Shown: positions 21,257-59,358 of the stretch, one piece after another
How the letters are laid out: each line of letters opens with the position of its first letter
Position numbering within the stretch: position 1 is the first letter of the stretch
DNA from: Clostridia bacterium
GTDB taxonomy: Bacteria > Bacillota > Clostridia > Christensenellales > Aristaeellaceae
Reading direction: 5' to 3'
Length of the DNA: 64,000 nucleotides
Assembly (NCBI GenBank): GCA_017937505.1
Contig: JAGBDL010000162.1
Coordinates: 29 to 64,028, forward strand
Made by a program: the position numbers and the translations under genes
Notes under the pieces: generated by a model
Seen by the model: the letters and a program-made list of their open reading frames with translations, nothing else
The model's database searches: none
Told to the model about the DNA's origin: nothing

Positions 21257-21276
21257 CGCCGCTAATGTAAACGATT

Positions 21277-21310
21277 GCCCGGAGGGCCACTGAAAGCTCT
21301 CCGGGCTTTT
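21277..21310 (+). terminator. rho-independent terminator supplied by the element just after truncated sigK
   Basis: gcccggag (21277-21284) pairs with ctccgggc (21298-21305), followed by tttt. Confidence 0.6.
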
Positions 21311-21420
21311 CATATGGACTATGAAGCGGTCATTCATCGAACAATTTCATTGATTTTTCTTCATCTGATCCGGAGAAGGATCAATACTCCTCATTTCCAA
21401 TTACCTGAGAGGTGATTTGA

Positions 21421-22242
21421 TTGCAACCAACCATTCTATCTATCGCAAACCAGAAGGGCGGAGTCGGCAAGACAACCACCTGCACCAACCTGGGCTTCGG
21501 ACTTGCGCAGGAGGGCAAGCGTGTGCTGCTGGTGGACGCAGATCCGCAGGCCAGTCTGACCATCAGCCTCGGCTGGCCCCAGCCGGACGCGCTGCCCGTC
21601 ACGCTGTCCACGCTCATGGGCCGCGCGCTCATGGACGAGCCAATCCGCGCGGAGGAAGCGATACTCCACCACGCGGAGGGCGTGGACGTGCTGCCCGCCA
21701 GCATCGAGCTGTCCGGCATGGAGGTGTCCCTCGTGAACGCCATGAGCCGGGAAACCGTGCTGCGGCAGGTGCTGGACGGCGTAAAGCGGCAGTACAGCCA
21801 TATCCTCATCGACTGTATGCCCTCGCTGGGGATGCTTACCGTCAATGCGCTTGCCGCATCGAACAGGGTGCTCATTCCCGTGCAGGCGCAGTACCTGTCT
21901 GCCAAGGGTCTGGAACAGCTCCTGCAGACCGTTTCCAAGGTGCACAGGCAGCTCAACCCGAAGCTCGCCATCGACGGCATCCTGCTGACGATGGTGGACA
22001 GCCGCACCAACTATGCCCGTGAGATCAGCGCCCTGCTGCGCGAGACCTACGGGAGCAAAATCAGGGTGTTCGCCACCGACATCCCGCACTCTGTCCGCGC
22101 GGCGGAGATCAGCGCGGAGGGCAAGAGCATCTTTGCGCACGACCCGAAGGGCAAGGTGGCAGAGGCATACCGTGCGTTGACGAAGGAGGTGATGCGCATT
22201 GAAAAGCAGCGCGAAAAACATCAGGCTGACCTCGGTCGATGA
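21421..22242 (+). CDS. parA: ParA/Soj family partition ATPase
   Basis: ILSIANQKGGVGKTTT deviant Walker A, LLVDADPQAS, ILIDCMPSLG. The start is TTG. Confidence 0.9.
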   Translation: MQPTILSIANQKGGVGKTTTCTNLGFGLAQEGKRVLLVDADPQASLTISLGWPQPDALPVTLSTLMGRALMDEPIRAEEAILHHAEGVDVLPASIELSGMEVSLVNAMSRETVLRQVLDGVKRQYSHILIDCMPSLGMLTVNALAASNRVLIPVQAQYLSAKGLEQLLQTVSKVHRQLNPKLAIDGILLTMVDSRTNYAREISALLRETYGSKIRVFATDIPHSVRAAEISAEGKSIFAHDPKGKVAEAYRALTKEVMRIEKQREKHQADLGR

Positions 22243-23128
22243 CCTGTTCTCCACCGAGGAGAGCCGCGCGGATGAGCAGCGCGAGAAGGTGCAGGAGATT
22301 CCCCTCGCGGAGCTGCATCCCTTTCCCAATCATCCGTTCAAGGTCGTGGACGACGAGCGCATGCTTGACACTGCAGACAGTATCCGCGAGCATGGCGTGC
22401 TCGTCCCGGCGATTGCCCGTCCGCGTGCGGACGGCGGCTATGAGCTGATTGCCGGACACCGGCGCAAGCGCGGCTGCGAGCTGGCAGGGCTTGACACCAT
22501 GCCGGTTATCGTCCGCAATCTTGACGACGATGCCTCGACGATCATTATGGTGGATTCGAATATTCAGCGCGAAAGCCTGCTCCCCAGCGAGCGGGCTTTT
22601 GCATATAAAATGAAGCTGGAAGCCATCAAACGGCAAGGTGCGAGAACAGATCTAACTTCTGGACAAGTTGTCCAGAAGTCACGTCTGTCCGTAGAAATCG
22701 TAGCAGATCAAGCGGGCGAAAACTACAAACAGGTTCAACGCTACATCCGTCTCACCGAACTCGTTCCAGACCTGCTCGACATGGTTGACACGAAGAAAAT
22801 CGCGTTCAACCCCGCTGTTGAGCTGTCCTACCTGAAGCCGGAAGAGCAGACAGCGCTGATGGAGGCGATGGACAGCGAACAGGCCACGCCGTCGCTCTCG
22901 CAGGCGCAGCGCCTCAAACGCTTCAGTCAGGAGGGCACGCTGTCGCCCGACATGATGCGCGCCATTCTCTCCGAGGAGAAGAAGGCCGACATGGACAGGG
23001 TGACGCTTACCGGCGACACCTTGCGCAAGTATTTCCCCAAGTCGTACACGCCCCGTCAGATGGAGCAGACCATCCTCAAGCTGCTGGAAGGCTGGCACCG
23101 CCGCCGCCAGCAGTCGCAGGAACGATAA
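22199..23128 (+). CDS. parB: ParB/Spo0J-like partition protein (ParB N-terminal nuclease-like domain)
   Basis: IPLAELHPFPNHPFKV, GVLVPAIARP, YELIAGHRRKRGCE. Confidence 0.9.
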   Translation: MKSSAKNIRLTSVDDLFSTEESRADEQREKVQEIPLAELHPFPNHPFKVVDDERMLDTADSIREHGVLVPAIARPRADGGYELIAGHRRKRGCELAGLDTMPVIVRNLDDDASTIIMVDSNIQRESLLPSERAFAYKMKLEAIKRQGARTDLTSGQVVQKSRLSVEIVADQAGENYKQVQRYIRLTELVPDLLDMVDTKKIAFNPAVELSYLKPEEQTALMEAMDSEQATPSLSQAQRLKRFSQEGTLSPDMMRAILSEEKKADMDRVTLTGDTLRKYFPKSYTPRQMEQTILKLLEGWHRRRQQSQER

Positions 23129-23183
23129 CCCGCCGCACGCGAAGACCGTGCGGCTGTTTGTTTTTGGAAAGAAGGTTGAGACT

Positions 23184-24107
23184 ATGGCGATTTTTCGCGT
23201 AGCCAAGACGCGGGACTACACCGTAATGAGCAATTACCACCTCCGGGACAAGAACCTCTCCCTCAAGGCCAAGGGGCTGCTGTCCCTCATCCTGTCCTTA
23301 CCGGAGGACTGGAACTACACGACGCGTGGATTGGCTGCCATCTGCAAGGAGGGCGTGGACAGCATCGGCGCTGCTCTGCGCGAGATGGAGAGCGCCGGGT
23401 ATCTCACCCGCCATCGCCTGCGCGACAGGAGCGGGCGCATCTCGGATACGGAGTATGTCGTCTATGAGAGTCCGCGCACAGAAACGGAAGCGGATTCGCC
23501 GGATAAGGTTTCGCAGGGCACGGACGAACCGGATACGGCTTCGCCGTGTACGGAAAATCCGTATATGGTTTTCCCGGATATGGCAACGCCGCAAACGGAT
23601 GCGCCGGATACGGAAAAGCCTGCGCAATTAAGTACTGAGGTATCCAATACGTATGAATCAAATACCCAAAAATCAAATCCTGATCCAATCATAGTCCAAA
23701 AACAAAGGGCTCAGCAAGCCGATACTGGCATGAGCGATATGGATCAGATGGATGCAAGGGAGTACCGGAAAACGTTCGCCGAAGTTAAGGAGCAGATCGA
23801 ATATGACGCACTGGATACGCCGCACGACCATGAACGTCTGGGCGAAATCGTGGAGATCATGACGGAGACGCTGTGCAGCCGCAAGCCGTATATCAAGGTC
23901 GCCGGAGAGAATTACCCCGCCGAGGTGGTCAAGAGCCGGTTCAAAAAGCTGAGCTATCATCACATCGAGTACGTCTTTCTGAGCCTCGATAAGAAGCATA
24001 CCGAGGTGCGCAATATCCGGCAGTACCTGATGACGACGCTCTATCATGCGCCAACGACGATGAGCAATTACTACGACGCGGAGGTGCGAAGCGCAGGGAT
24101 TTTGTAA
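23184..24107 (+). CDS. winged-helix replication-initiator-like protein of conjugative/mobilisable elements
   Basis: MAIFRVAKTRDYTVMSNYHLRDKNLSLKAKGLLSLILSLPEDWNYT is the conserved N-terminus of this element-borne family. The central low-complexity PD-repeat region follows. Confidence 0.7.
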   Translation: MAIFRVAKTRDYTVMSNYHLRDKNLSLKAKGLLSLILSLPEDWNYTTRGLAAICKEGVDSIGAALREMESAGYLTRHRLRDRSGRISDTEYVVYESPRTETEADSPDKVSQGTDEPDTASPCTENPYMVFPDMATPQTDAPDTEKPAQLSTEVSNTYESNTQKSNPDPIIVQKQRAQQADTGMSDMDQMDAREYRKTFAEVKEQIEYDALDTPHDHERLGEIVEIMTETLCSRKPYIKVAGENYPAEVVKSRFKKLSYHHIEYVFLSLDKKHTEVRNIRQYLMTTLYHAPTTMSNYYDAEVRSAGIL

Positions 24108-25284: not shown

Positions 25285-25638
25285 ATGATCGAACTGAACT
25301 ACAAGCGCAGCGGGGATTACCTGCTGCCTGACCTGGGTCTGACTGAAACAGAATAGTTGCCGCTGGGCAAGTATGGCCTGCTCAGACAGTACTATCTGGA
25401 GGAGAATCGCCCGGGCCTGTACACGAGGCTGATTCTCAGCGGAAAGCTGATGGAACATCTTCAGGAGATCGAGCAGACGGCACAGAGCCGCCTCGAAAGC
25501 CTGATGAGCCAGCTGTCGAAGCAAGCGGACGTAACGGAGGAGCTGAAAGCCCGGGATCAGATGGCTTGGGTGCAGCGGATGAACGCACTGCAAGCACAGG
25601 CCGAGGAGATGATCCTGTCGGAGCTGATTTACGCCTGA
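25285..25638 (+). pseudogene. tnpV: TnpV-like protein with in-frame TAG at codon 24
   Basis: MIELNYKRSGDYLLPDLGLTETE-TAG(25354-25356)-LPLGKYGLLRQYYLEENRPGLYTRLILSGKLMEHL is continuous homology across the stop. Confidence 0.7.
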
Positions 25639-25660
25639 TGGATGAAAACGGAGGACAACC

Positions 25661-25951
25661 ATGATGAAGACATCGCTGAGAATCGCTTTGGCCCCTGTGA
25701 TGCTGATCATTCGCCTGACGCTTGGGCTGGCGGCTTTTCTGACCTCTATTGCATCGTCGGTTCTAGGATTATCAGTGTCGCTGTTTGCCCTTCTTGCGGT
25801 GATCGAGTTCTTTATCGGCTACTGGCAGAACGGAATTGCGTTTATGGTTCTCGCGTTTCTGGCAAGCCCCATCGGATTGCCGGCAATCGCCAACCTTCTG
25901 CTGAACCTGCTGGATCATCTCATCGGTTTTCTGGAAGGCTTGGTTTGCTGA
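25661..25951 (+). CDS. small integral membrane protein (follows TnpV in related elements)
   Basis: Three hydrophobic helices. RBS acggagga lies upstream. Confidence 0.6.
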   Translation: MMKTSLRIALAPVMLIIRLTLGLAAFLTSIASSVLGLSVSLFALLAVIEFFIGYWQNGIAFMVLAFLASPIGLPAIANLLLNLLDHLIGFLEGLVC

Positions 25952-26018
25952 AAGTGATTTTGCCTGCGGCGGTTTGTGTGCATCACAGATCGCCGCTTTT
26001 CTTTTTGTGGAGGAACGT

Positions 26019-26198
26019 ATGGCGACCACTCGAATTATTCCGATGCACATCAACAAGGGAAAGACCATAGCACAATGCCTGAAGGCGCGGGTGGAATATG
26101 TGAAGAACCCGGACAAAACGGATGGCGGCGAGCTGATTTCATCGTATGCCTGCTCGCCGGAAACAGCAGACCAGGAGTTTCTGATTGCGCAGAATTAG
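26019..26198 (+). pseudogene. relaxase/mobilisation nuclease, N-terminal 59-codon stub
   Basis: MATTRIIPMHINKGKTIAQCLKARVEYVKNPDKTDGGELISSYACSPETADQEFL is the conserved start of MobA/VirD2-type relaxases. The ORF stops exactly where base composition switches to AT-rich. Confidence 0.75.
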
Positions 26199-26679
26199 TA
26201 TTAAGGAAGATGTGGCACAGAAACTGGATTCACTGTTCAAACATGGAAACCTGAGTCTTCGCATTGCATAAAAGGCAGTTTCACATAAAATTCAAATACG
26301 ACACTGGGGACGCATCTTTTTGCTCTACTTTTAATAATATGGAACGAATGCTTGTTTATTGATGTGAACGCTTCGGATACAGTGGCGATAATTATCAGGG
26401 CAAGAGAATCTGGCCTCACAATTTGCTGTCTGCTCAAACAACTCCGTGGTATTTGATAGTAAATGTACTCGATCGCCTTCTACGTGACATAAGCAGGGGA
26501 TGTATATCGAAGAAGCACAGCAGGCATTTCAGAATTACAAGATTATCTACAGTATCTAACATTACATTATAAGATTGATGTTCTCGTTGTTGACGATGAT
26601 CGTCATTTGAATAAAGAGACTGTTCCATTTGAGAAAAGAAGAGCAGCTAATGATATCGCTTAGAATTACAGTAAAGGCA

Positions 26680-26708
26680 TTGACTTTTGATCTCAATCCA
26701 GCTATTAT
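26680..26708 (+). promoter_or_regulatory. candidate sigma-A promoter of the MTase-HIT-TM-ATPgrasp/MazG operon
   Basis: TTGACT (26680-26685), a 17-nt spacer, then TATTAT (26703-26708). RBS gggagg precedes ATG 26757. Confidence 0.5.
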
Positions 26709-26756
26709 TACTGTAAAATAGGATTTGTATATACAAAATGGGAGGCTGATTATTGG

Positions 26757-27650
26757 ATGAGTAATTACTCCCCTCTTCGGTATCCGGGAGGAAAATCGGC
26801 ATTGTATCCTGTTATTTCCAGCGTGATAGAATCCAATAGAATGAAGCACTGCATATATGTCGAACCTTTTGCTGGCGGTGCAGGCATTGCATGGAGTTTG
26901 CTGATTGATGGCGTAGTAGATCGTGTGATTATTAATGATGCAGATAAAGCTGTATATTCATTTTGGCGAGCTATTGTGGAATCTACGCAATGGTTTGTTG
27001 AGAAGATCAGGACAACGCCGATAACGGTCGATGAATGGCGAAAACAAAGGGATATTCTCCGAAAGTCAAAGAAGTACAGCAAAGAATTGGGTTTTGCAAT
27101 GTTCTTTTTAAATAGAACTAACCGATCAGGCATTTTGGATGCTGGTCCCATAGGCGGTTATGATCAGGCAGGAGAGTATAAAATTGATTGCCGCTTTAAC
27201 AGAGATGAATTAATCGGGAAAATTATAAAGATTTCTGAATACCGGAACAACATCAGAATATACAATCAAGATATTTCGACATTCTTGAAACGGTTTTTGC
27301 CTCAAGGAAACGAAAACAATGAGATATTTGTGTACTTTGATCCACCCTATTATGAAAAGGGTCAGCGATTATACATGAATTCTTTTTCGAGTAAAGACCA
27401 TGAGAGATTAAGGGATTCGGTTGCCCTTCTTGATTGCAGGTGGATCATGACATACGACGACAAGTCTGAGATTGAAGAGCTGTACGAGAGTTATCAGAAG
27501 TGTCGCTTTTCAATCAATTATAGTCTGTCGAATAAAAGAAAAGGTGGAGAACTGATGATTTATAAAGACACATCGTGTATTCCATCTTCTGAGGTTATTT
27601 CAAAATTATCTAAATCAGTTACTTTTGGTAATATTTGTTTGGAGGGATAG
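26757..27650 (+). CDS. D12-class (Dam-like, alpha group) N6-adenine DNA methyltransferase
   Basis: PLRYPGGKSAL, EPFAGGAGIA (motif I), NRTNRSGI, FVYFDPPYY (motif IV). Confidence 0.9.
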   Translation: MSNYSPLRYPGGKSALYPVISSVIESNRMKHCIYVEPFAGGAGIAWSLLIDGVVDRVIINDADKAVYSFWRAIVESTQWFVEKIRTTPITVDEWRKQRDILRKSKKYSKELGFAMFFLNRTNRSGILDAGPIGGYDQAGEYKIDCRFNRDELIGKIIKISEYRNNIRIYNQDISTFLKRFLPQGNENNEIFVYFDPPYYEKGQRLYMNSFSSKDHERLRDSVALLDCRWIMTYDDKSEIEELYESYQKCRFSINYSLSNKRKGGELMIYKDTSCIPSSEVISKLSKSVTFGNICLEG

Positions 27651-27653
27651 AAA

Positions 27654-28280
27654 GTGGATAACTGTAGATTTTGTGGCATAGCTAACGGAAGTATGGATAC
27701 GCAAAAACCTGAAAACGTGAAGATTGCAGAGAGCGAAAAGTTTTTTGCCATTTCCTCGGTTGGTGCGTTGGTGGAAGGTTGGACACTCATTGTGCCCAAA
27801 CACCACTGCTGCTCTATGAAGAACTTATATACCGAAGAAGAGTTTTCTACATTTTCGAATCAACTTGTAAGCATATTGACTGCTTGCTATGGCCCCGTCA
27901 TTGCTTTTGAGCATGGTCCCAACCGTGAAGGCTCTGATACTTCTTGCGGAACTGACCACGCACATATTCATATCGTGCCATATCGTTCTTTGATGGCAAA
28001 ACTTGATGATATGGAAATGGAATGGCAGACATGTAGTGCGTCCCAAGTGTGTGAACTTGTTGGTAGAAATGAGTACCTGTTTTATTGTGAACCGGGTACA
28101 AAATGGGACAATCCGACCGGTCGGGTACATGTTTTGAAAGAGCCCATATCTCAGTTTTTTAGGAAGGTTATTGCTGAAGATTTGGGCGCGCCTGACAAAT
28201 TCAACTATAAAACTAACCCCGATACAACGCTTACGCTGAAAACCATTGAAAGGGTAAGATACTATTGTGCTAAGCATTGA
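27654..28280 (+). CDS. HIT-family nucleotide hydrolase/transferase
   Basis: N-terminal CRFCGI, and the histidine triad GTDHAHIHIVPY. GTG start lies 3 nt after the MTase stop. Confidence 0.85.
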   Translation: MDNCRFCGIANGSMDTQKPENVKIAESEKFFAISSVGALVEGWTLIVPKHHCCSMKNLYTEEEFSTFSNQLVSILTACYGPVIAFEHGPNREGSDTSCGTDHAHIHIVPYRSLMAKLDDMEMEWQTCSASQVCELVGRNEYLFYCEPGTKWDNPTGRVHVLKEPISQFFRKVIAEDLGAPDKFNYKTNPDTTLTLKTIERVRYYCAKH

Positions 28281-28291
28281 GAGGTTTAGAA

Positions 28292-28885
28292 ATGACAGAG
28301 AACAAAACCAATACAAAAGAAGAAGCAGCGGAAGTGACTAAAAGCGCCTCTGTACCGGATGCTATTGAAACAAAGGTAAATACTGATGGCCGAAAGCCCT
28401 ATGAGTGGCAATCAAAATACCCTAAAGAGGCACGAAACGAAATGCTGTGGGAAGCTATATATATTGGTGCAGTTTTGGTCGTGTCCTTTTTGGGATTATT
28501 TCTTAATTGGAGCGGAGTATTCAGTTGCTTTCTGAAAGTAGATCCAACAAGAGTGATTGCCTTCGAAGGAATTTTGCTATATTTCCTTTCTGGCTTGATG
28601 GGAGGCACTATCTTTGGGATAAAATACTTTTATAGAGTCGTAGCACGAGGGTATTGGACACAGGATAGGAAATACTGGAGAGTTTTTTCTCCATGGATTT
28701 CTGCATGTGTGGCTTTGGTTGTTGGGTGCATGATTGTTTCTGGTTACATTAACGCGACTCAGACTCCATCTACTGCGACTGGGGTTTGCGTAGGCTTCAT
28801 TTCTGGTTATTTTGCAGATGAAGCAGTTGGCAAAATGTCTGAAGTAGCAACAGCTCTGTTTGGCTCCAGTAGTAAAGTAAAATGA
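28292..28885 (+). CDS. 4-TM membrane protein, unknown function
   Basis: Hydrophobic helices AIYIGAVLVVSFLGLFLNW, GILLYFLSGLMGGTIFGI, ISACVALVVGCMIVSGY, GVCVGFISGYF. ATG follows gagagg. Confidence 0.7.
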   Translation: MTENKTNTKEEAAEVTKSASVPDAIETKVNTDGRKPYEWQSKYPKEARNEMLWEAIYIGAVLVVSFLGLFLNWSGVFSCFLKVDPTRVIAFEGILLYFLSGLMGGTIFGIKYFYRVVARGYWTQDRKYWRVFSPWISACVALVVGCMIVSGYINATQTPSTATGVCVGFISGYFADEAVGKMSEVATALFGSSSKVK

Positions 28886-28892
28886 GGTGCTT

Positions 28893-35662: not shown

Positions 35663-35904
35663 CCGGCAAATTATTATCTCAAATTCCGCCCTGCTCGCGC
35701 CTGTTGCGGCAGGGCAATCCTCTTTCCGGTACAAAATATTATGTCAAATTGTTTTGGCACAAAGCCTTGTAGCAGCTAAGTTTCTGGATGATTTTTGAGA
35801 TAATAAATTATTTGCGATAACCAATGTTATCTCAAATCAAAACGCCACAATGCGTTTGACCAACATGGCTGTTTATCTCAATATCGGAGAGCTTTGTGTC
35901 CGAT

Positions 35905-38654: not shown

Positions 38655-38684
38655 TGGACAGAATTGTATTACTGGATGTATAAT
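38655..38684 (+). promoter_or_regulatory. candidate sigma-A promoter of the PHP-ATPase gene
   Basis: TGGACA (38655-38660), an 18-nt spacer, then TATAAT (38679-38684). Confidence 0.4.
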
Positions 38685-41163: not shown

Positions 41164-41196
41164 TTGCTGATTCCGAATCAGATAGTCGGCCTTCCC

Positions 41197-43466: not shown

Positions 43467-43644
43467 CTTTTGGCCGCTTTTGGGTGCCGATTGACGCTAG
43501 AATAGGGGCGCGTAAACGTCCAGCCAGAAAACGAATGAAGGGAGGCGGCGAGGATTCTGGGCGAGGCAACAGGTGGTTTCCAATACTGGCTGACGTGCGC
43601 TCACAACTGTTTACAGAGAAAGAATGAAACAGGGAGGCATTTTC

Positions 43645-44955: not shown

Positions 44956-44967
44956 GGAGGCATACGC

Positions 44968-46293: not shown

Positions 46294-46305
46294 GGAGGCA
46301 TACGC

Positions 46306-47370: not shown

Positions 47371-47383
47371 ACCGAACTGAAAG

Positions 47384-49037: not shown

Positions 49038-49043
49038 CGGCGA

Positions 49044-49739: not shown

Positions 49740-50296
49740 GCGCACATGTCCTGAAACGATGGCACGGTGAGGCGGTACGAATGATGGAGGGCCATCCGGC
49801 TTTGATCAGCTCCTGCGAGGAGCATACGGCGCTCCTGGTCAAGCGATACGGCGCTCAGCTAGTTGGTCTTTGTTCCCGGCTGCTGCGGGATCACGATCTG
49901 GCACAGGATGCAGTACAGGAAACCCTTTTGAAAGCCTACCTGAAGCGCGGGAGCTTTCGGGGAGAAAACGAAAAGAGCGAAAAGGCCTGGCTGATGCAGA
50001 TCGCGGTGAACGTCTGCCGCGATCAGATGCGGACGAGCTGGTTTCGCCTTGCCGACAGCGAAAGTGCTTTGGATGCGCTGAACCGGGCGTCTGTGGAGAC
50101 GTCGGAGGAGGCTGTGCTGCTCCGTATCATGATCGGTTCTCTACCGAAGAAGTACAGCGAGGTGATTTGGATGTACTACTATCAGGACATGACGGTATGC
50201 GAAATCGCCGCTGTGATCGAAAGATCAACAGCCGTTGTGTACCGAAGGCTGAGAGAGGCCAGGCAAATGCTCAGATCATCCATGCAGCCGGATTAG
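49736..50296 (+). CDS. ECF-type RNA polymerase sigma factor
   Basis: Region 2 DLAQDAVQETLLKAY...WLMQIAVNVCRD. Region 4 YYQDMTVCEIAAVIERSTAVVYRRLREAR. GTGA overlap with the ABC gene stop. Confidence 0.85.
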   Translation: MSAHVLKRWHGEAVRMMEGHPALISSCEEHTALLVKRYGAQLVGLCSRLLRDHDLAQDAVQETLLKAYLKRGSFRGENEKSEKAWLMQIAVNVCRDQMRTSWFRLADSESALDALNRASVETSEEAVLLRIMIGSLPKKYSEVIWMYYYQDMTVCEIAAVIERSTAVVYRRLREARQMLRSSMQPD

Positions 50297-50396
50297 GCCG
50301 GCCGTGAAAACGCGCACATCTTTATGCAATCCGAAAAACAGCGGCGAAGAGCCAGACACTTCGATGCAGAGCCATGCCGCTGGTGAAAGAGCAGAG

Positions 50397-50582
50397 ATGA
50401 ACAAACAAATGAACGAAATACGATGGATTCACTGTCCGATTTGCGGCAGAAAAACACGAACGAGGGTATATCAGGACACTGTGCTGGTGAAATTCCCGCT
50501 GTTTTGTTCCACATGCAAGAAAGAAACCCGAATCAATGTGGTACAGATGAAAATGGTTGTAAGCGACGAGCCAGACGCCTAG
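50397..50582 (+). CDS. cysteine-rich KTR-type zinc-ribbon protein
   Basis: IHCPICGRKTRTRV...FPLFCSTCKKET. A small protein of this kind typically accompanies element-borne sigma factors. Confidence 0.7.
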   Translation: MNKQMNEIRWIHCPICGRKTRTRVYQDTVLVKFPLFCSTCKKETRINVVQMKMVVSDEPDA

Positions 50583-50652: not shown

Positions 50653-50998
50653 TCAAGGCTCGGCGTTCTTCGTGCGGAGCGTTTTGAGGATGGTCTCGAC
50701 AACCGGAATCAGTGCGGCGGCTTCCTGCTCGGTGCAGCTCTCCATTTGAACGCGCAGCGCTCGTTTGGTGGAGCTTTCATGGCTCAACTCAGGTGTGAAA
50801 ACGTCCCGCGCGTCGATCTTGAGCAGACGGATCAGGGGGTAAAGCGTCCCCATCTTCGGATTTCCCCCTGTAGTTTTCGATGTTCATGATCGTCCGGGGA
50901 TCGGTGTTGATCTGACTGGCGACCTGCTCCTGCGTAAGCCTCAGATCATTTCGGGCCACCTTCACGGCATCGCCCAAGGGTCTGGCATAATCTTGCAT
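50653..50998 (-). pseudogene. XRE-family HTH regulator, frameshifted
   Basis: The N-terminal half (MQDYARPLGDAVKVARNDLRLTQEQVASQINTDPRTIMNIENYRG) and the C-terminal half (MGTLYPLIRLLKIDARDVF...) lie in different frames. They join near the C/G homopolymers at about 50850-50870. Confidence 0.65.
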
Positions 50999-51953: not shown

Positions 51954-52364
51954 TCAGATGAGGACGCCCTCGCAGTGGTCGATCTCGTGCTGTATGATCT
52001 GCGCCGTGAAGCCGGAAAAGGTTCTGATGCGGCTTTGGAACTTCTCGTTCTGCCACTGCACCTTGATGGTTCGGAATCGCTTCGTCTTCCGAACGCCGGC
52101 GAGAGACAGGCACCCCTCCTCCACCTCGTAGGGCCCGGACTGCTTGACAATGACGGGATTGAACATGACCATATATGCGCCGTCGCTCTCAAAGGCGATA
52201 ATCCGCTTGCCGACGCCGATCATATTGGCCGCCATCCCCACGCAGCCCTCCCTGTGGGCCGCCAGCGTATCCAGCAGATCCTGCGCAACGCCGAGATCGT
52301 CTGCCGTGGCGGGCTCGGATTTGCGCGCAAGGAAGAATGGATCTCTGCATATCTCACGAATCAT
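51954..52364 (-). CDS. def: peptide deformylase (short, element-borne copy)
   Basis: GMAANMIGVGKRII, EGCLSL and QHEIDHCEG are the three PDF motifs. Confidence 0.9.
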   Translation of the reverse strand: MIREICRDPFFLARKSEPATADDLGVAQDLLDTLAAHREGCVGMAANMIGVGKRIIAFESDGAYMVMFNPVIVKQSGPYEVEEGCLSLAGVRKTKRFRTIKVQWQNEKFQSRIRTFSGFTAQIIQHEIDHCEGVLI

Positions 52365-52948
52365 GTTGTTCCTTCCTCTCTGTTGCTTTGCTCATAGTAT
52401 TTGTCGATGCCCCCAAAGCCCGGAATCATCCGGTTCTTCCTTGTCTTTTCGAGAAAGCTATTCATGCGCTTTTCAAACTCTTCTGGGCGCTTTCTTGCGG
52501 CATCGATATAGGCAACCCGTATCCTGCGGTAGGCATCGGGAAAGGCGTTGTAGTTTTTCCACGCAATGGGGTCTGCCTTGAGTCTGCTCAGGATGTCCTC
52601 GGGAAACACATAGGGCGCGGTGATCAGCGGGAGCACGCTTCCCCGGACGGTTGGATGAAGCAGACCACGGTCATTGAGCCAGATCAATCGCTCGATGTTC
52701 GGGCGTGAGTAGGCGCTCGACGGGCTTCTCGGCGTAAATCGCTGCGCCCTGTGGAGCGGATCGATGTGCTTGATGGTGCTGTCAATCCAGCCAAAGCACA
52801 GGGCTTCCTCCACGGCATCGTTGTAGGAAAGGCTTTCCTCTCCGGTGGCCTTCATCGGGAAGACGAACCAGATTTCCTTTTCGGTTTCAAAGTGGCTCGA
52901 AAGCCACTCGCGCCAGGCATTTCGGTCTGCTGTATAGAATGTCTCCAT
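52361..52948 (-). CDS. YdeI/OmpD-associated family protein
   Basis: DRNAWREWLSSHFETEKEIWFVF...EEALCFGWIDS is characteristic of YdeI-like proteins. ATG 52948 lies 8 nt after gggaggg. Confidence 0.75.
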   Translation of the reverse strand: METFYTADRNAWREWLSSHFETEKEIWFVFPMKATGEESLSYNDAVEEALCFGWIDSTIKHIDPLHRAQRFTPRSPSSAYSRPNIERLIWLNDRGLLHPTVRGSVLPLITAPYVFPEDILSRLKADPIAWKNYNAFPDAYRRIRVAYIDAARKRPEEFEKRMNSFLEKTRKNRMIPGFGGIDKYYEQSNREEGTT

Positions 52949-53255
52949 CGAGCGCGATCCCTCCCACAAAGCATCGTGGCTCCAAAACGGCAGTTCTTCT
53001 TGCCTTGATTATACTTCCTTAGTCAGAGTGTGTAAAGACGATAACTGGTGGGTCATTCCTGCGGTACGCACTTGTAAAGAGGGCGGCGACACAGGCGGGC
53101 CGCTGATCAGATGATAACAGGCTGCGTCTTATTCCTAAACGGAAGGTCAACGACGTTATTCGCTGTAAAAAATGCGGTATATTTCAGAAACTCGTTGTAT
53201 TTTTTGTGTTTGCGTACTATACTATACTTGCATGATGACTGACGGAGGTGCTTGT

Positions 53256-54569
53256 ATGTACCGAATTGCGATTGAAAAGCTATTGAAATGGAAGCAAAGC
53301 AAACGCCGCAAACCGCTGATTATCGAGGGCGCACGTCAGGTTGGCAAGACCTGGCTGATGAAAGAATTCGGCAGGCAGGCGTATGCGGATACCGTGTATA
53401 TCAATTTCGACTCCAACTCCAGAATGGCCGAGCTATTTGCATCCGACCTGGATACGGAACGCCTGATCATGGGGCTCGAACTCTATGCGGGACGTAAAAT
53501 CGATCCTGACAATTCCTTGCTGATCTTTGATGAAGTGCAGGAAGTTCCACGAGCGTTGACATCGCTGAAATACTTCTACGAGAATGCGCCGCAGTATCAT
53601 ATCGTGTGCGCCGGTTCTCTGCTCGGTATCGCCTTGCATCAGGGGACGTCTTTCCCCGTTGGCAAGGTGGATTTCCTGAAGCTCTATCCGCTTTCATTCA
53701 GGGAATTTTTGATGGCAACCGGCAAGGAGCGTTTTGAGAAGCTGCTTGAAAAGCGGGACTTTGGCATGATGACAAGCTTCAAACAAACATACACGGATGC
53801 GCTGAAGCATTATTATTTTGTTGGCGGTATGCCCGAAGCGGTGCAAAGCTTTGTTGAAAACAAAGACTTTAATGATGTTCGGGAGATTCAAAAGAGAATC
53901 CTGGCCGCTTATGAGCAGGATTTCTCCAAACACGCTCCGAACGAGATTGTCCCACGGATTCGTATGCTGTGGAACAGCATCCCTTCCCAGCTGGCGAAGG
54001 AAAACAAGAAATTCATATACGGCCTTGTCCGTGAAGGCGCTCGTGCGAAAGAATATGAAACTGCAATCATGTGGCTGAGTGATTGCGGCCTCGTTCATAA
54101 GGTCAGCCGTGTCAATGCGGCAGGCATTCCGCTGAAGGCCTATGAGGATCTCAAAGCGTTCAAGCTGTTCTTGGTCGACGTTGGATTGCTGGGGTGCATG
54201 ACAGGGCTCCGCCAGCGCACATTGCTTGACGGCAATGCGCTATTTGTCGAGTTCAAGGGAGCCCTTACGGAACAGTATGTTTGCCAGCAGCTTAAGACCA
54301 TCGAGGATTTAGGGATTTACTATTACACAAACGACAGGGGCTCCTGCGAGGTTGATTTTGTTGTCGATACTGGCGAAAGAATCATTCCCGTTGAAGTGAA
54401 AGCGGAAGTCAACCTGAGAGCTAAGAGTCTCAAAACCTATCAGGAAAAGTTTTCGCCTGAGGTATCTGTCCGTACATCCATGGCAGATTACAGAAAAGAA
54501 GACTGGCTTGTCAACCTGCCGCTGTATGCGATTGAAACGATTGCAAAAGTCGTAGATGATCTGGGTTAG
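53256..54569 (+). CDS. AAA-type ATPase with C-terminal DUF4143-like domain
   Basis: LIIEGARQVGKTWL (P-loop), LLIFDEVQ (Walker B), and a conserved C-terminal EVDFVV...PVEVK restriction-endonuclease-like fold motif. Confidence 0.8.
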   Translation: MYRIAIEKLLKWKQSKRRKPLIIEGARQVGKTWLMKEFGRQAYADTVYINFDSNSRMAELFASDLDTERLIMGLELYAGRKIDPDNSLLIFDEVQEVPRALTSLKYFYENAPQYHIVCAGSLLGIALHQGTSFPVGKVDFLKLYPLSFREFLMATGKERFEKLLEKRDFGMMTSFKQTYTDALKHYYFVGGMPEAVQSFVENKDFNDVREIQKRILAAYEQDFSKHAPNEIVPRIRMLWNSIPSQLAKENKKFIYGLVREGARAKEYETAIMWLSDCGLVHKVSRVNAAGIPLKAYEDLKAFKLFLVDVGLLGCMTGLRQRTLLDGNALFVEFKGALTEQYVCQQLKTIEDLGIYYYTNDRGSCEVDFVVDTGERIIPVEVKAEVNLRAKSLKTYQEKFSPEVSVRTSMADYRKEDWLVNLPLYAIETIAKVVDDLG

Positions 54570-54580
54570 GAGGTACCGTT

Positions 54581-55309
54581 ATGAAAAAGCTTTATGAAAA
54601 GAGTGAAATCTGGTTCGCTGTGGCATGGATCATCGTCTATGTCGTCGTTATGGGCAATCTGCGGGGCAATTTTGGAGATGAAAGCCTGTATTCCATGCTG
54701 GCGGCACTCGTCATGGCCAGCGTGCTCACCGTGTTCATCGTCAGGAACAGGCTGACAGACAGGTTCGGACTTGTTCTGTGGACGGACAGCAGGAAGTACC
54801 TGTACTTTATTCCGTTTGTTTTGCTGTGCACCGTGAATCTGTGGTTCGGCGTTTCCCTGCATGACAGCATGGGTCGGCAGATCGTTGCGGTGATGACCAT
54901 GGCGCTGGTAGCCTATGTGGAGGAGATTATTTTCCGGGGGCTGCTGTACAGAGCCATCGAGAAGGACAGCGTGAAACAGGCGATTGTGATTTCCGCAATT
55001 ACCTTTGGCGCGGGGCATATTGTCAATCTGCTGACCGGGCAGGGCAGTCTGGATACCCTCTTACAGATGGGCTACGCCATCGCCATCGGATTTGCTTTTG
55101 TCATGTGCTTCTATAAAAGCGGCAGTCTGGTTCCCTGTATAGCCACCCATGCCATCGTCAATGTAACCTCCAAATTCTCCAATCACAACATCCCGGAGCA
55201 GGCTGAAATGCTCTGGAGCTACGGAAGCTTTTTGTTTATTGTCCTTGTGGCAGGCGGGTATGCGCTCTACCTGCGCAGCGTACCCAAGTCTGAACGTATT
55301 GGTAGGTGA
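54581..55309 (+). CDS. CPBP (CAAX/Abi) family intramembrane glutamic endopeptidase
   Basis: EEIIFRGLL, FGAGH and IATHAIVN motifs within a polytopic protein. Confidence 0.85.
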   Translation: MKKLYEKSEIWFAVAWIIVYVVVMGNLRGNFGDESLYSMLAALVMASVLTVFIVRNRLTDRFGLVLWTDSRKYLYFIPFVLLCTVNLWFGVSLHDSMGRQIVAVMTMALVAYVEEIIFRGLLYRAIEKDSVKQAIVISAITFGAGHIVNLLTGQGSLDTLLQMGYAIAIGFAFVMCFYKSGSLVPCIATHAIVNVTSKFSNHNIPEQAEMLWSYGSFLFIVLVAGGYALYLRSVPKSERIGR

Positions 55310-55329
55310 AGAATCGGGTGGTGAACAAA

Positions 55330-55797
55330 ATGGAAATCAGAATGGCGAATGAATCGGATATCGAGGGCTGGATGAGCCTTGTGCGCAAGGTGAAGGATCA
55401 TTTTCCCGGGCTGGAAACGCCAGCTGCGTTGGATGAGCATCGGGATACGGTTCTGGATTTTATGCGCAAAGAATCCGCCATCTGTGCCAGGATCGAGGGC
55501 AGGATCGCCGGGGCCTTGCTGTTTTCCAAAGCGCCTGCGATGCTCTGCTTTCTGGCTGTCGATGCCGAATATCGCAGACAGCATATTGCCAGAGAGATGG
55601 TGAACCATATGCTCAGCCTTTTGGACGCCAATCAGGATGTGGTTGTCACGACATACCGGGAAGGCGACCCGGAAGGGGTTGCTGCAAGAGCGTTTTACAA
55701 GCATCTGGGGTTTGAAGAGGGAAGGCTGACGGAGGAATTTGGAAGTCCTGTTCAGGAGTTTATTCTATATCGATCAACACGCAGCGCGAGTAGATAA
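55330..55797 (+). CDS. GNAT family N-acetyltransferase
   Basis: LAVDAEYRRQHIAREMV (acetyl-CoA-binding Q/RxxGxG/A-like segment), FYKHLGF. An alternative GTG start at 55306 overlaps the CPBP stop. Confidence 0.8.
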   Translation: MEIRMANESDIEGWMSLVRKVKDHFPGLETPAALDEHRDTVLDFMRKESAICARIEGRIAGALLFSKAPAMLCFLAVDAEYRRQHIAREMVNHMLSLLDANQDVVVTTYREGDPEGVAARAFYKHLGFEEGRLTEEFGSPVQEFILYRSTRSASR

Positions 55798-55900
55798 AGA
55801 ACCTTTTCAATTGAGACGAGTATAAGAACTTATTTTGCATGCTTTCAGACAAAGAAAAATGCCCATCGGTTCATATCCTGTGAATCAATGGGCATTGTTT

Positions 55901-56296
55901 TTATTCATCGTATTTTTCCTGCAAGTATGCATATACAGCGCAGAGGAAATCTTCTGCACCTTTTACCAGCTTTTGAGTGTCCTCAATGGAGCAAATGAAG
56001 AAATCCTCATAATCGCTGCGGTTGCGAATCAGGGAAGCGTTGGAGATCAGCTTGCCATATTCGCGGGGCAGGATTTCAGGTTTCAGATAGTTCATGGTGA
56101 ACCGCGCAATGACAGCAGAATGCTTCTTGTAATCCTCGCCATCGAGAGCAATCACAGCGCGCATGGCATGGAAAATGCAGTAATAGGCGCGATTATTCGC
56201 TGAGGCGTAATCCTCCGCGTGCATGTCGCGCTTGGCGGTTTCAAGTGTTTCTGCTGCTTTTGTAAGACGATACCTGGAAAGATCGATCAGGGTCAC
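55901..56296 (-). CDS. HEPN domain toxin (HEPN/MNT pair)
   Basis: ANNRAYYCIFHAMRAV and the IRNRSDYED motif. GTG 56296 lies immediately after the MNT stop. Confidence 0.75.
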   Translation of the reverse strand: MTLIDLSRYRLTKAAETLETAKRDMHAEDYASANNRAYYCIFHAMRAVIALDGEDYKKHSAVIARFTMNYLKPEILPREYGKLISNASLIRNRSDYEDFFICSIEDTQKLVKGAEDFLCAVYAYLQEKYDE

Positions 56297-56297
56297 A

Positions 56298-56639
56298 TCA
56301 GGCAACGATCCGCACCCCCTCGCGCTGTACATTCTTGAAGAAGGGCAGCAAGTCAGCATTCGCATGATAGTAAGCCCGGTTTTCTACGATGGGCGAAACA
56401 ACGATGCCGAAATCCATCAGCACTTCTGCTGCGGCTTCTCCGATCTGCCAATGTTTTTCTTGGATCGTTTGCCGGGAAGAATCCACGAGGAACATCACAT
56501 CAATGTCAGAGCCATCATCTGCATCATTGCGGGCATATGATCCAAAAAGAATCACGTCAAACTGTTCCTGCGGGAAGATGTTTGCCAGGTTTTCACGAAG
56601 CTGTGCAATGATCGTGCGCACTTCAAGCTGCGAACACAT
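56298..56639 (-). CDS. MNT-type nucleotidyltransferase antitoxin
   Basis: ILFGSYARNDADDGSDIDVMFLV is the minimal nucleotidyltransferase GS...D.D motif. Confidence 0.85.
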   Translation of the reverse strand: MCSQLEVRTIIAQLRENLANIFPQEQFDVILFGSYARNDADDGSDIDVMFLVDSSRQTIQEKHWQIGEAAAEVLMDFGIVVSPIVENRAYYHANADLLPFFKNVQREGVRIVA

Positions 56640-56706: not shown

Positions 56707-56970
56707 TCATGCAGAATGCTCATGACGGTATAACGAGAAGGGTGGTTGATTGTCTTGCAGAGACGGTCTGCCACCTTTTTCTAATACAGCAAATACTTCA
56801 TTGCGAAACCCTCTGGTTTGCAGCTCACGCCAGTTTTGCTCAATGGGATTCATTTCCGGAGTGTATGGAGGTATATGCAGAATAGATATTCCTTCTGGAA
56901 CTTCCAACGTTCCGGATTTATGCCATGCTGCACCGTCACAGATGAATCGACTGTCACGCTGTCCATACAA
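56707..56970 (-). pseudogene. IS630-family transposase remnant (C-terminal DDE fragment)
   Basis: ICDGAAWHKS...ILHIPPYTPEMNPIEQNWRELQ is the third acidic-residue region of IS630/Tc1 transposases. No N-terminal part is present. Confidence 0.7.
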
Positions 56971-57033
56971 AGAGGAATGCGTGAGCTTGACCGCTCGATA
57001 AAAAAGTTTAAGAAATTTCGGTCAAGACATTAA
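56953..57033 (+). pseudogene. 3' remnant of a second sigma-region-4 regulator gene
   Basis: VTLSIQRGMRELDRSIKKF parallels VAVTYSIQRGMRMLSRRITGF at the end of the 51295-51717 gene. It is truncated upstream by the IS630 remnant. Confidence 0.35.
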
Positions 57034-57476
57034 CTTTTGGTCCCAAAACCTAACGGTTAGTGAAGGGACTCATTTCCCCGACGCACCTTGATAACCGCAT
57101 ACAGACGCAACGGGTACAGCTTCCCGTGCGGCGGAGCGACGAATGGAGTGGCGCGAGGATGGCGCAGGCTGGAGCGATTCACGCATTCCATTGACCCTGC
57201 TTAGGCAGGCAGGGCGCGACGAGGCTACACGGGCACAATGAGACTTCCTCACGGCCCCTCAAAGACTGGAGGGGAACCCTGCGGTGCGCGCTTGTCCAGG
57301 GGGACGGCGGCACAGGCGGAGCTATGATGCGGATGAGCCGTCCGCAGCCCGAAGCGTCTTTTTCTGTCAACCATGTACTCTGGCACGACGCGGGGTTTCG
57401 GCGTTGTTCTCCGTCTGACGGAGGACAAGCAAGAAAACCGCGTCCCGACATAGAATCCGGCAAGGAGGTGGGGTGT

Positions 57477-57623
57477 GTGAAGCGTAGTCAAGCCCTTGTG
57501 GTTCGCTGCGAATACCCAAGCACCGAGAAGAGTCTTGCCTGTCTGCTTGAGGAATCCTTCCGGCTTTATCTGGCCCGTATCCTTGCAAGTCCGGACGGGC
57601 ATGCGGTATCCTGTGGGCGATGA
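57477..57623 (+). CDS. small protein immediately upstream of the recombinase (TnpW-like; candidate directionality factor)
   Basis: GTG 57477 lies 7 nt after aaggaggtgggg. 48 codons, ending 27 nt before the recombinase ATG. Confidence 0.45.
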   Translation: MKRSQALVVRCEYPSTEKSLACLLEESFRLYLARILASPDGHAVSCGR

Positions 57624-57650
57624 ATGGCCGCTTGTTTCAAGGAGGATATA

Positions 57651-59228
57651 ATGACTCTGGAAATAAGCAACCCCATGGATTATCACGTCGCCCTGTATAT
57701 TCGATTATCGAAGGAGGATGAAAACGAAGGCCCCTCGCAGAGCGTCACCAATCAGAAATCGCTGCTGAACGAATTTGTCAAGCAGCACCGTCTTAGGGTC
57801 TACGACACCTACATCGACGACGGCTGGAGCGGCACCAGCTTTGACAGGCCGGACTTTCAGCGTATGATCGCCGACATTGGGGCCCGGAAGGTCAACATGG
57901 TCATCACCAAGGACCTGTCCCGTCTGGGCCGCGACTACATCATGACCGGTCACTACATGGAGCGGTACTTCCCCGAAAAGCGGGTCCGCTACATCTCCCT
58001 GCTGGACGGCATCGACACCGGCGTGGAATCCTCCGCCAACGACATCACGCCGTTCCGGGCCATCATGAACGACATGTACGCCAAGGACATCTCCAAGAAG
58101 ATCAAGTCCGTCAAGCACGACAAGCAGCGGAAGGGACAGTTCATCGGCGGAAAGCCCATGTACGGCTACAAGATGCACCCGACGGAGAAGAACAAAATCG
58201 TCATCGACGAGGAGGTCGCCCCCGTCGTGCGGCGAATCTTCGCCATGGCGCTGGAGGGCGTCAGCTGCCGTCAAATCGCCGTGCGGCTCAATGAGGAGCA
58301 TATCCCCGCACCGTCCGTGTACAGCGGCCTGAACGTCGGCAGGAAGGGCCCCTATACCGGGCAGTGGTCCAGTGAGCGCATTTCGGAAATGCTGCAAAAC
58401 GAGACCTACATCGGCCACATGGTGCAGGGGCGCACGGTCAAGATCAGCTACAAGTCGAAGAAGTGTCTCAAGCAGGCGCGGGAAAACTGGGTTGTGGTGG
58501 AAAACACGCATGAGCCGCTGATCGATCTGGGCACCTTCCAGAAGGTGAGGCTGCTCATCAGCAGCCGCAAGCATACCCGCAGCCGGACGTATGACTTCCT
58601 GCTCAAGGGCTTGATCTTCTGCCACGAGTGCGGCTATCCCATGGCGGTCGTCAACCGGCCCACGGCGGACGGCTCCCAAAGGCTGTTCTTCGTCTGCCGG
58701 ACGTACCAGCGGTTCACGAAGGCGGGCGTCTGCACCTGCCATTCTATTAAAGAGGAAACAGTTACGCAAGCGGTGATCGGGAAGGTGCGCGAGGTTTGCG
58801 AGGCGTTCATGAATCCATTAAGCCTGCAGCCTATCGCCGCCGCCGCGGTGGAGCAGGCTCGACGGGCGGAGAGCCACGAGGCCGAGCTTCAGGCGCTGCG
58901 CAGCCGGATGGACGGCATGACCGCGAATCTGGATAAGGTCTACATGGACCGGCTGAGCGGCCTGCTGGCGGAAGCGGACTTTGAGCGCATCTACAAGCGC
59001 ATCCGCATGGAGCGCGAGGCGCTGGAGGAAAAGCTGCGTGCGCTGGAGGCGCAGAAGGAAAGCCCGGTCAGCACGGAGGAGCGGGCGCGGGAGCTGGTTG
59101 AGCACTTTCTCGCGTCCGTCTGCACCAGCCGGGAGCTGCTGGTCAGCCTCATTGAGCGCGTGGAGCTGACGGAGGACAAACAGATCATCATCCGGTTCCG
59201 CTTCCGGGAACTGGAAGCGATTTCCTGA
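57651..59228 (+). CDS. large serine recombinase (SpoIVCA/TnpX-like)
   Basis: VALYIRLSKEDENEGPSQSVTNQKSLL (catalytic Ser region), ITKDLSRLGRDY, the recombinase domain GKPMYGYK, the zinc ribbon FCHECGYPM...FVCRTY, and a C-terminal coiled coil. RBS aaggagga. Confidence 0.9.
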   Translation: MTLEISNPMDYHVALYIRLSKEDENEGPSQSVTNQKSLLNEFVKQHRLRVYDTYIDDGWSGTSFDRPDFQRMIADIGARKVNMVITKDLSRLGRDYIMTGHYMERYFPEKRVRYISLLDGIDTGVESSANDITPFRAIMNDMYAKDISKKIKSVKHDKQRKGQFIGGKPMYGYKMHPTEKNKIVIDEEVAPVVRRIFAMALEGVSCRQIAVRLNEEHIPAPSVYSGLNVGRKGPYTGQWSSERISEMLQNETYIGHMVQGRTVKISYKSKKCLKQARENWVVVENTHEPLIDLGTFQKVRLLISSRKHTRSRTYDFLLKGLIFCHECGYPMAVVNRPTADGSQRLFFVCRTYQRFTKAGVCTCHSIKEETVTQAVIGKVREVCEAFMNPLSLQPIAAAAVEQARRAESHEAELQALRSRMDGMTANLDKVYMDRLSGLLAEADFERIYKRIRMEREALEEKLRALEAQKESPVSTEERARELVEHFLASVCTSRELLVSLIERVELTEDKQIIIRFRFRELEAIS

Positions 59229-59239
59229 TGATAGGAAGC

Positions 59240-59320
59240 TGCGCAAAAAACCGTACAGCGGGCACTGAATGGCTTGATTTTACAAAGCTGTTCGGAAGTG
59301 GAAGCGGGCACCGCTCGCGG
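59240..59320 (+). repeat. about 80-nt repeat, copy A (inside the right end of the element)
   Basis: tgcgcaaa..cttgattttacaaagCTGTTCGGAAGTGGaAGCGGGCAC.. aligns with 60717-60796. The cores 59288-59311 and 60764-60787 differ at 1 base. Confidence 0.6.
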
Positions 59321-59346
59321 GTGATCGTTTACAATAGGCGCGGCGC

Positions 59347-59358
59347 TATGTATCGCGC
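59347..59358. repeat. attR core (TATGTATCGCGC)
   Basis: Identical to 21245-21256. Confidence 0.85.

Follow-up and report, generated by a model that had tools for sequence, protein, structure and literature searches.

A skin-type element in sigK of an uncultured gut clostridium with a conserved recombinase cassette and remnants of conjugative elements

The single sigK gene of an uncultured gut clostridium is split by a 38,102-bp element. It occupies positions 21257-59358 of the stretch of DNA analyzed here (the window: 64,000 nucleotides, positions 29 to 64,028 of contig JAGBDL010000162.1, assembly GCA_017937505.1). Our results suggest that it is a skin-type (sigK-intervening) element of non-viral make-up. 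It is probably a recombinase cassette that sits in mosaic remnants of integrative and conjugative or integrative and mobilizable elements (ICEs and IMEs) whose transfer functions are dead. A first-pass annotation, made from the letters of the window, had described it as a decayed mobilizable element related to Tn4451, domesticated as a developmental switch.

Results

The host is a metagenome-assembled genome (MAG) of 3.1 Mb in 198 contigs, 96.7% complete and with a GC content of 61.4%. The genus to which it is assigned, one of uncultured gut Clostridia, counts "Candidatus Ventricola intestinavium" among its members. The MAG encodes the sporulation proteins SpoIVA, SpoIIID and SpoIIIAA. Its sigK is broken between SYVSR and IEKK, inside the recognition helix of region 4.2. 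The two att sites share a 12-bp core (Table 1), and their element-side arms are imperfect inverted repeats, forming an imperfect dyad. Joining the outer flanks in silico yields a pro-sigma-K gene of 236 codons as a single intact open reading frame (ORF), and in its central 32 nt the rebuilt attB does not differ from the sigK of the closest sister species (G044), which is intact. As in a skin element, the sigK ORF is interrupted and excision would restore one ORF. Both sigK halves are intact and constrained (ratio of nonsynonymous to synonymous divergence, dN/dS, 0.06–0.08). Four other genomes of the genus, G004, G059, G062 and G003, have an interruption at this very codon, and sigK is uninterrupted in G044, G007, G011, G015, G058 and G006 (labels of genomes in our survey).

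The N-terminal leader of the reconstituted SigK (20576-20700) ends in ...GSAFPKPLSREEE, which we take to resemble the cleavage region of Bacillus subtilis pro-sigma-K. Given this resemblance, excision and processing of the pro-sequence may both operate here.

The recombinase that would carry out the excision is intact. This large serine recombinase (LSR) stands 119 nt from attR, at the element's edge and beside the 3′ fragment of sigK, as the recombinases of skin elements do. A close counterpart is in the sigK element of G062, which is 7.2 kb long, carries a rhamnosidase as cargo and has an LSR that is 96% identical. Between the two LSRs, dN/dS is 0.08 at a synonymous divergence (dS) of 0.25. 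The full set of LSR domains, this low ratio and the exact restoration of attB bear out the first-pass annotation, which had judged the recombinase and both att sites to be intact. Host genes downstream of the element on the plus strand, efp included, have dS values of 0.13–0.38. Since the dS of the LSR lies within this range and its dN/dS is low, the right end of the element fits co-descent with the host under purifying selection. One host ORF on the minus strand (59531-60787), with a dN/dS of 3, was judged spurious and left out.

A scan of species-representative genomes returned more than 578 relatives of the LSR, and we analyzed the best 80. These are 72–96% identical to it and are found in Oscillospiraceae, Lachnospiraceae (Blautia, Lacrimispora) and a large number of unclassified Clostridia MAGs. 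Isolates of Lawsonibacter celer and Pseudoflavonifractor capillosus are among the carriers of the cassette. At least 66 of the 80 have a 3′ remnant of sigK (…VSR[ILMV]EK…) no more than 130 nt downstream of the LSR. A stricter pattern finds the remnant in 31 loci and the looser one, which allows for variants (DVSRIEK, NVSRIEK, YVSRMEK), in 66; the apparent misses that were inspected carry it too. LSRs that are 73–85% identical occur in hosts whose SigK N-terminal parts are 42–52% identical. Such an excess of LSR identity over SigK identity points to horizontal spread of the cassette. No LSR in the phage and plasmid collections exceeds 40% identity to it. TndX, the one LSR of the Tn4451/Tn5397 type in the collections searched, has the same architecture but is 31.8% identical, no closer than phage LSRs. 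By these comparisons the LSR appears to form a clade of its own that is dedicated to sigK.

Among the relatives are 21 complete elements of 4.6–9.8 kb. Among their cargo genes are one resembling tyrosine integrases and others for Fic, AIPR, a DUF4143 ATPase, a hydrogenase and TspO, and no relaxase, TnpV, ParAB or phage genes were found in the 21. The cassette thus sits mostly in small elements without transfer genes, so the IME genes of our element may be passengers rather than the ancestral vehicle.

The LSR start is abutted by a conserved 48-aa ORF, which recurs in about 59 of 70 relatives and is possibly a directionality factor. In this place the first-pass annotation had drawn a TnpW-sized ORF (57324-57623); there is an ORF, but the conserved one is the shorter. 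Further upstream lies a promoter-like motif that reads AGGACAAGC…CATAGAAT in the window. It can be compared with the SpoIIID consensus of B. subtilis, TAGGACAAGC (quoted in PMC11180830). In 55 of 57 relatives CATAnnnT occurs at a fixed position, about 20 nt upstream of the ribosome-binding site of the 48-aa ORF. The composite motif GGACA[AG]GC-N13-21-CATAnnnT is present in 27 of 70 upstream regions and has no occurrence elsewhere in the 2.35 Mb of the same loci. Further occurrences in the MAG appear to be intragenic and random, and we set them aside. The same type of −10 precedes the host genes spoIVA (CATACGTT), spoIIID and spoIIIAA (both CATAGGAT) and sigK (CATACACT). A predicted, conserved promoter of mother-cell type before the recombinase operon fits a developmental switch. 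Control by sigma-E and SpoIIID is the logic of spoIVCA in B. subtilis.

The cassette is preceded by a conserved structured non-coding element. It has stops in all frames, and an alignment of 13 sequences predicts a structure of 40 base pairs, 21 of which show compensatory changes. The structured element is found in 17 of the 50 genomes of the genus, and in most loci a long ORF follows 240–340 nt downstream of it. The long ORFs that were checked are integrases (one resembling the Tn1549 integrase by a PDB match, two LSRs), and five further loci have distant relatives of tyrosine integrases in this place, as judged by pairwise BLAST only. In the two copies whose upstream side was inspected, those of the window and G062, the structured element comes after a gene for a sigma-70 region-4 (sigma-r4) regulator. 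A search of Rfam returned no family. In the window 254 nt separate it from the LSR start. With this spacing kept, the sigK cassette would occupy the native integrase slot of the element family. The structured element itself is a candidate for a new cis-regulatory or mobile-element RNA.

Gene content was scanned with Pfam, NCBIfam, PADLOC and PHROGs, and none of these scans of the element matched a capsid, portal, terminase, tail or lysis family. PHROGs found nothing structural in 20 hypothetical ORFs, and six-frame searches with hidden Markov models (HMMs) of the HK97 capsid, portal and TerL gave no match on the contig. Nearly all ORFs of about 90 aa or more belong to a non-phage family or are of unknown family without a phage structural match. 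Five plus-strand ORFs (41164-42525, 42644-43138, 35896-36618, 51975-52708 and 55835-56540) were rejected. Their Atlas recognition score is low, and Pfam finds the kinase and LytTR regulator, RloB, a deformylase and HEPN on the minus strand instead. As these ORFs were wrongly called, the PHROGs results on them are uninformative. Records that IMG/VR lists as proviruses and that contain LSR relatives carry helicase, primase and RecE-like genes, are rated 15–31% complete and have no capsid, portal or TerL. The element thus lacks the genes by which a prophage is recognized. The first-pass annotation had held that it is not a prophage and had set, as the refuting test, phage structural genes found by sensitive HMM searches; no such genes were found, in comparisons that for a few small or unknown ORFs stayed at the level of sequence, and the claim survives.

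The transfer genes are broken. The stop codon in TnpV stands where the 85%-identical orthologue in G011 has CAG. The relaxase stub is 95% identical to the start of a 478-aa protein in G011, which has a complete MobA/VirD2 nuclease domain (PF03432, aa 27–161). With 59 of the 478 codons left, the stub lacks most of this domain, and the element has no functional relaxase of the kind that an IME carries. Homology to G011 restarts at 32027, exactly past the stop codon of the G011 relaxase. Hence, codons 60–478 were replaced by an island of 41% GC. We rejected 32027-32252 as the 3′ end of the relaxase, as it is the DNA just past that stop codon. As in an IME, no genes for a type IV secretion system (T4SS) or a coupling protein were found among the Pfam-scanned ORFs of the element. 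The XRE regulator is read in two frames (50653-50853 and 50789-50998), with one extra base beside a G5 run. All of the lesions listed in the first-pass annotation are present in the assembly: the TAG at 25354, the relaxase cut after 59 codons at 26198, the frameshift in XRE and the sigma-like stub beside an IS630 remnant. The same goes for its backbone genes, as ParA, ParB, a DUF6017 protein, TnpV, the relaxase stub, sigma-r4, KTR and the LSR were all found.

Other parts of the element have been kept. Its intact LSR and att sites constitute an integration and excision module of its own, as an IME has. ParA and ParB have been under purifying selection across three species (dN/dS 0.10–0.18), so the decay of the backbone is not uniform. 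Structurally, the element is a skin element; of an IME it is a remnant only.

Our results also indicate that the backbone does not derive from one source. The sigK elements of G004 and G059 share its ParA-ParB-DUF6017 left end. In an Enterococcus (E. faecium) plasmid, a conjugation module of the CD1110/Tn1549 type is headed by DUF6017. As the left end resembles such conjugative elements, the remnant could equally well be that of an ICE or of an IME. TnpV, the 142-aa accessory ORF and the relaxase stub are 85–95% identical to a non-sigK element of G011, in which 9 kb separates TnpV from the relaxase. A non-sigK element of G062 has the kinase, the LytTR regulator and sigma-r4 in syntenic order, and the 3′ end of sigma-r4 is present twice in our element. 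Because the nearest relatives of the blocks lie in different non-sigK elements, the sigma-r4 end is duplicated and islands are separately mobile, the element is best read as a mosaic that combines the backbones of at least two related ICEs or IMEs with mobile defense islands, not as one decayed element.

The G062 element just mentioned (G062:C16:4777-11029) lies directly upstream of sigK. It has a related kinase/LytTR pair, sigma-r4 and the structured element and ends in a different LSR (25% identical). The sigK neighborhood of G062 therefore carries two LSR elements side by side.

The island that replaced most of the relaxase is 5.8 kb long. In run X4, from another study, 26195-31619 is 99.9% identical to the window and the backbone 92–94%; the left boundary (26195) is shared. 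The difference argues that the island is separately and recently mobile. Across the element GC content ranges from 41% to 59%, compared with 61.4% for the genome. That the backbone matches the host in base composition, as had been stated, is roughly true only (53–59% GC). At least five defense or candidate defense loci are present in the element, PDC-S01 and PDC-M49A-like genes included. The HEPN/MNT pair (PDC-S09-like, 55901-56639) and the AbiLi/RloB pair (35905-37958) both lie on the minus strand. Two small ORFs lie between the DUF6017 gene and the first sigma-r4 gene.

Across TnpV, the Logan contigs of X1 match the window letter for letter. They also bridge the junction at 26198, with an even depth of about 9–10x in the host flank and on through the element. 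As X1 probably is the sample from which the MAG was made, an assembler slip is ruled out and a sample-specific allele is not. The same strain was detected in run X2. The assembly graph has a branch at 32250. In three runs Logan contigs join 32247/32252 to 35821/35816 on opposite strands, and a 2.1-kb tyrosine-recombinase segment (33742-35837) is found 98% identical and inverted beside the intact relaxase of G011. The segment 32247-35821 would thus seem to be either invertible or present in both orientations in related elements.

Table 1. Features of the sigK element and its flanks (positions in the window)
Feature	Position	Strand	Basis
sigK 5′ part (pro-sigma-K, regions 2 to most of 4.2)	20576-21256	+	Pfam Sigma70_r2/r4, translation; end ...GISRSYVSR
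attL core, 12-bp direct repeat TATGTATCGCGC	21245-21256	.	sequence comparison
ParA	21421-22242	+	Pfam
ParB	22199-23128	+	Pfam
HTH_36+DUF6017 protein	23148-24107	+	Pfam
Sigma-70 region-4-like regulator, 145 aa	24687-25124	+	weak Pfam/NCBIfam matches
TnpV pseudogene, in-frame TAG 25354-25356	25285-25638	+	Pfam TnpV PF14198, E 4e-34
142-aa ORF and relaxase stub (26019-26198)	25642-26198	+	142-aa ORF conserved upstream of relaxase, MobC position
41%-GC island: PD-Lambda-5_B-like Dam methyltransferase, HIT-like, membrane protein, 849-aa protein	26199-32026	+	scans, GC
IS21-like transposase fused in frame to tyrosine recombinase, and second tyrosine recombinase	32313-35662	+	Pfam
Second low-GC defense block: RloB/AbiLii(-), AbiLi(-), PDC-M49A/TrlF-like PHP-ATPase(+), 117-aa ORF	35905-41163	.	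Pfam, NCBIfam, PADLOC
GHKL histidine kinase and LytTR response regulator	41197-43276	-	Pfam; same pair in G062 neighbor element
Cargo: three DUF6034-like secreted paralogues, membrane proteins, ABC ATPase, ECF sigma, KTR	43624-50582	+	scans
ECF sigma	49736-50296	+	Pfam
KTR zinc-ribbon protein	50304-50582	+	Pfam
XRE-type regulator, +1 frameshift	50653-50998	-	two-frame reading, assembly sequence
Intact sigma-r4 regulator, 161 aa	51232-51717	+	79% identical to G062 neighbor-element copy
Cargo block 2: deformylase(-), YdeI(-), DUF4143 ATPase (PDC-S01), CAAX protease, GNAT, HEPN(-)/MNT(-)	51954-56639	.	scans
IS630-family transposase remnant, 99 of ~340 aa	56710-57006	-	homology
19-codon 3′ stub, second sigma-r4 gene	56953-57009	+	tblastn, 68% identity, E 2.7e-4
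Conserved structured non-coding element, ~255 nt	57085-57370	+	alignment; also G000:C37:1295-1570
Promoter-like motif: SpoIIID-box-like GGACAAGC, then CATAGAAT as −10	57423-57456	+	motif comparison
Conserved 48-aa ORF, motif LEESFRLYL; abuts LSR start	57477-57623	+	recurrence in relatives
Large serine recombinase, 534 aa, intact	57624-59228	+	Pfam Resolvase+Recombinase+Zn_ribbon_recom
attR core, 12-bp direct repeat TATGTATCGCGC	59347-59358	.	sequence comparison
sigK 3′ part, 18 codons and stop, IEKKAMLRLKEAFEKGTV*	59359-59415	+	translation, sister-species comparison

Discussion

Our results can be summarized in a model in which a core cassette (57.42-59.36 kb) would do the work. It would consist of the mother-cell-type promoter, the 48-aa ORF, the LSR and a dyad attP, in the position that integrases have in related clostridial ICEs and IMEs (sigma-r4, structured element, about 250 nt, integrase). 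The remainder may stem from at least two related backbones. One would have contributed ParA-ParB-DUF6017 and TnpV, the accessory ORF and the relaxase, the other the two-component system and the ECF/KTR/XRE-sigma-r4 stretch. Separately mobile defense and insertion sequence (IS) blocks would have landed in both. During sporulation, the mother cell would transcribe the small ORF together with the LSR, by means of SpoIIID and RNA polymerase with a sigma-E or sigma-K type of factor. Recombination of attL and attR at the 12-bp core would then be catalyzed by the LSR, perhaps steered by the small protein. This would restore an intact pro-sigma-K gene, and the chromosome of the forespore would retain the element.

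Several of our observations weigh against this model. Excision is deduced from the sequence, and the promoter is assigned by motif similarity, with a −35 region unlike the sigma-E consensus of B. subtilis. The element is dispensable, as the closest species, G044, does without it and has its sigK in one piece. Constraint on ParA and ParB is poorly explained if the element is domesticated and discarded in the mother cell. The element, the frameshift in XRE included, is known from a MAG assembly, and a second branch in X1, in which an intact relaxase continues from 26201, means that the local assembly graph was branched.

One could also argue that an ancestral mini-skin, made up of the cassette and a few kb of cargo like most of its relatives, came first and served as a landing pad. 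The ICE/IME pieces, IS and defense islands would be later passengers in a site shielded from selection, and no sigK-targeting IME would ever have decayed. The 21 small relatives without relaxase, TnpV or ParAB are what such a history would leave, and so are the G062 element with its nearly identical LSR and rhamnosidase cargo, the blocks with nearest relatives in different elements and the duplicated sigma-r4 end. We nevertheless consider it rather unlikely, as the cassette has the canonical integrase position and spacing, which makes it look like the native right end of an ICE or IME, and the ParA-ParB-DUF6017 left end adjoins attL in three species. It is improbable that the element is a still mobile IME, mobilized in trans through a preserved oriT by a co-resident relaxase and kept as a selfish element. 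The X1 sample does contain a relaxase allele that is intact and has the same 5′ end, nothing is broken in the accessory ORF or in the region upstream of it, ParA and ParB are constrained, and the LSR cassette has spread across families. However, no oriT was identified and the MAG has no second relaxase; a promoter of this type would restrict expression to the terminal mother cell, and the right end has diverged together with the host flank.

Two further explanations concern the status of the insertion. Sporulation has been lost in many gut Clostridia, and the insertion could be a dead one that inactivated sigK in a non-sporulating lineage. Alternatively, the contig could be chimeric, given a MAG in 198 contigs and a graph that is branched at 26201 and 32250. 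Both seem very improbable to us: the depth is uniform, unitigs bridge the junctions and the same strain recurs in X2, and a dead insertion would have to coexist with constrained sigK halves, a constrained LSR and sporulation genes. Most described skin elements have been called prophage-like (PMC5025042; PMC5595907), and some LSR relatives are listed as proviruses in IMG/VR. Nevertheless, a classical skin prophage whose structural genes have diverged beyond recognition is extremely improbable. PHROGs, Pfam and the six-frame HMMs found no structural, packaging or lysis genes, the IMG/VR records are without them as well, no phage record has a closely related LSR, and nearly all of the longer ORFs belong to a non-phage family or are without a phage structural match. 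Hence, we return to the sigK cassette in conjugative-element remnants as the probable explanation. The idea of a domestication as a switch while mobility was lost can be kept in part. The transfer genes are dead and the LSR is constrained, but the element is a mosaic, ParA and ParB are constrained, and the IME may be a passenger.

Like the skin elements of B. subtilis (with SpoIVCA) and Clostridioides difficile (with CD1231 and the recombination directionality factor (RDF) CD1234), our element interrupts sigK, has an LSR at its edge beside the 3′ part of sigK, a short repeat core and a small ORF by the recombinase. CD1234 is reported to be under sigma-E and SpoIIID control, from a mother-cell promoter with a SpoIIID site (PMC5025042), which is the control that the motif predicts for our element. 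In contrast to the known skin elements, the insertion site is in the recognition helix of region 4.2, phage-related genes are absent in favor of ICE/IME and defense content, and the LSR appears to belong to a separate clade (Oscillospiraceae, Lachnospiraceae, unclassified Clostridia MAGs). The small ORF abuts the LSR directly, a position unrelated to that of CD1234 in C. difficile. A survey of 15 skin elements from 2022 found the recombinase to be the sole common part and inferred a phage origin (bioRxiv 10.1101/2022.02.25.481979). Earlier work has covered the variability of skin elements and the edge position of the recombinase (10.1101/2022.02.25.481979; PMC5025042). For the gerE gene of B. 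cereus, one intervening element of non-viral kind, gin, has been described (Abe et al. 2017, PMC5595907). Like our element it is a non-viral composite, in which an LSR (GirC) is accompanied by a small RDF (GirX) and by what may be remains of conjugation control. Unlike our element, gin has another target gene, is much smaller and is without relaxase, ParAB and DUF6017.

Kinship to Tn4451, as proposed in the first-pass annotation, is weak on present comparisons. With Tn4451/Tn4453 and Tn5397 our element shares an LSR as the only integration enzyme and a homologue of TnpV. The TnpZ relaxase of Tn4451 is of the Mob/Pre type, whereas the relaxase orthologue of our element is MobA/VirD2 (PF03432). 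Our LSR differs from TndX in sequence (about 32% identity) and in its strict single-site specificity. Among the Pfam hits none matched TnpW, TnpY or catP, and TnpZ is absent as well. In Tn5397 an LSR can replace the tyrosine integrase of a Tn916-type backbone. A similar exchange of LSR and tyrosine integrase is seen across the elements related to ours. IME_Rho_tet (PMC12904643) and ICEs of the Tn1549/CD1110 type share with our element a relaxase with an upstream accessory gene, transcription factors, a serine recombinase at the end and inverted-repeat att arms. They differ from it in that our element has a destroyed relaxase, no T4SS genes, a developmental gene as target and a sporulation-type promoter.

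A bolder reading, which we offer tentatively and are slightly more inclined to doubt than to believe, is that the cassette is a portable, sporulation-gated integration module that has spread horizontally through gut Clostridia. It would replace the integrases of ICEs and IMEs or carry a few kb of cargo, and it would make sigK a protected harbor in which defense islands and other mobile DNA gather. The small ORF would be a new RDF family, and the separate structured RNA of about 255 nt, so far undescribed, would mark the integrase-proximal end of an ICE/IME family.

Our case is not a new principle. It is a sigK element built from parts of conjugative elements, where skin elements are usually described as defective prophages. 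It opens the question of how a developmental excision site becomes a sink for defense systems. Its main value lies in the portable sigK cassette and the conserved promoter rather than in the decayed relaxase. The data point to one highly conserved recombinase cassette, dedicated to sigK and with a sporulation-type promoter, across gut Oscillospiraceae, Lachnospiraceae and their relatives. A candidate RDF, a defined promoter and exact att sites provide handles on the gating of sigma-K in uncultured gut spore-formers.

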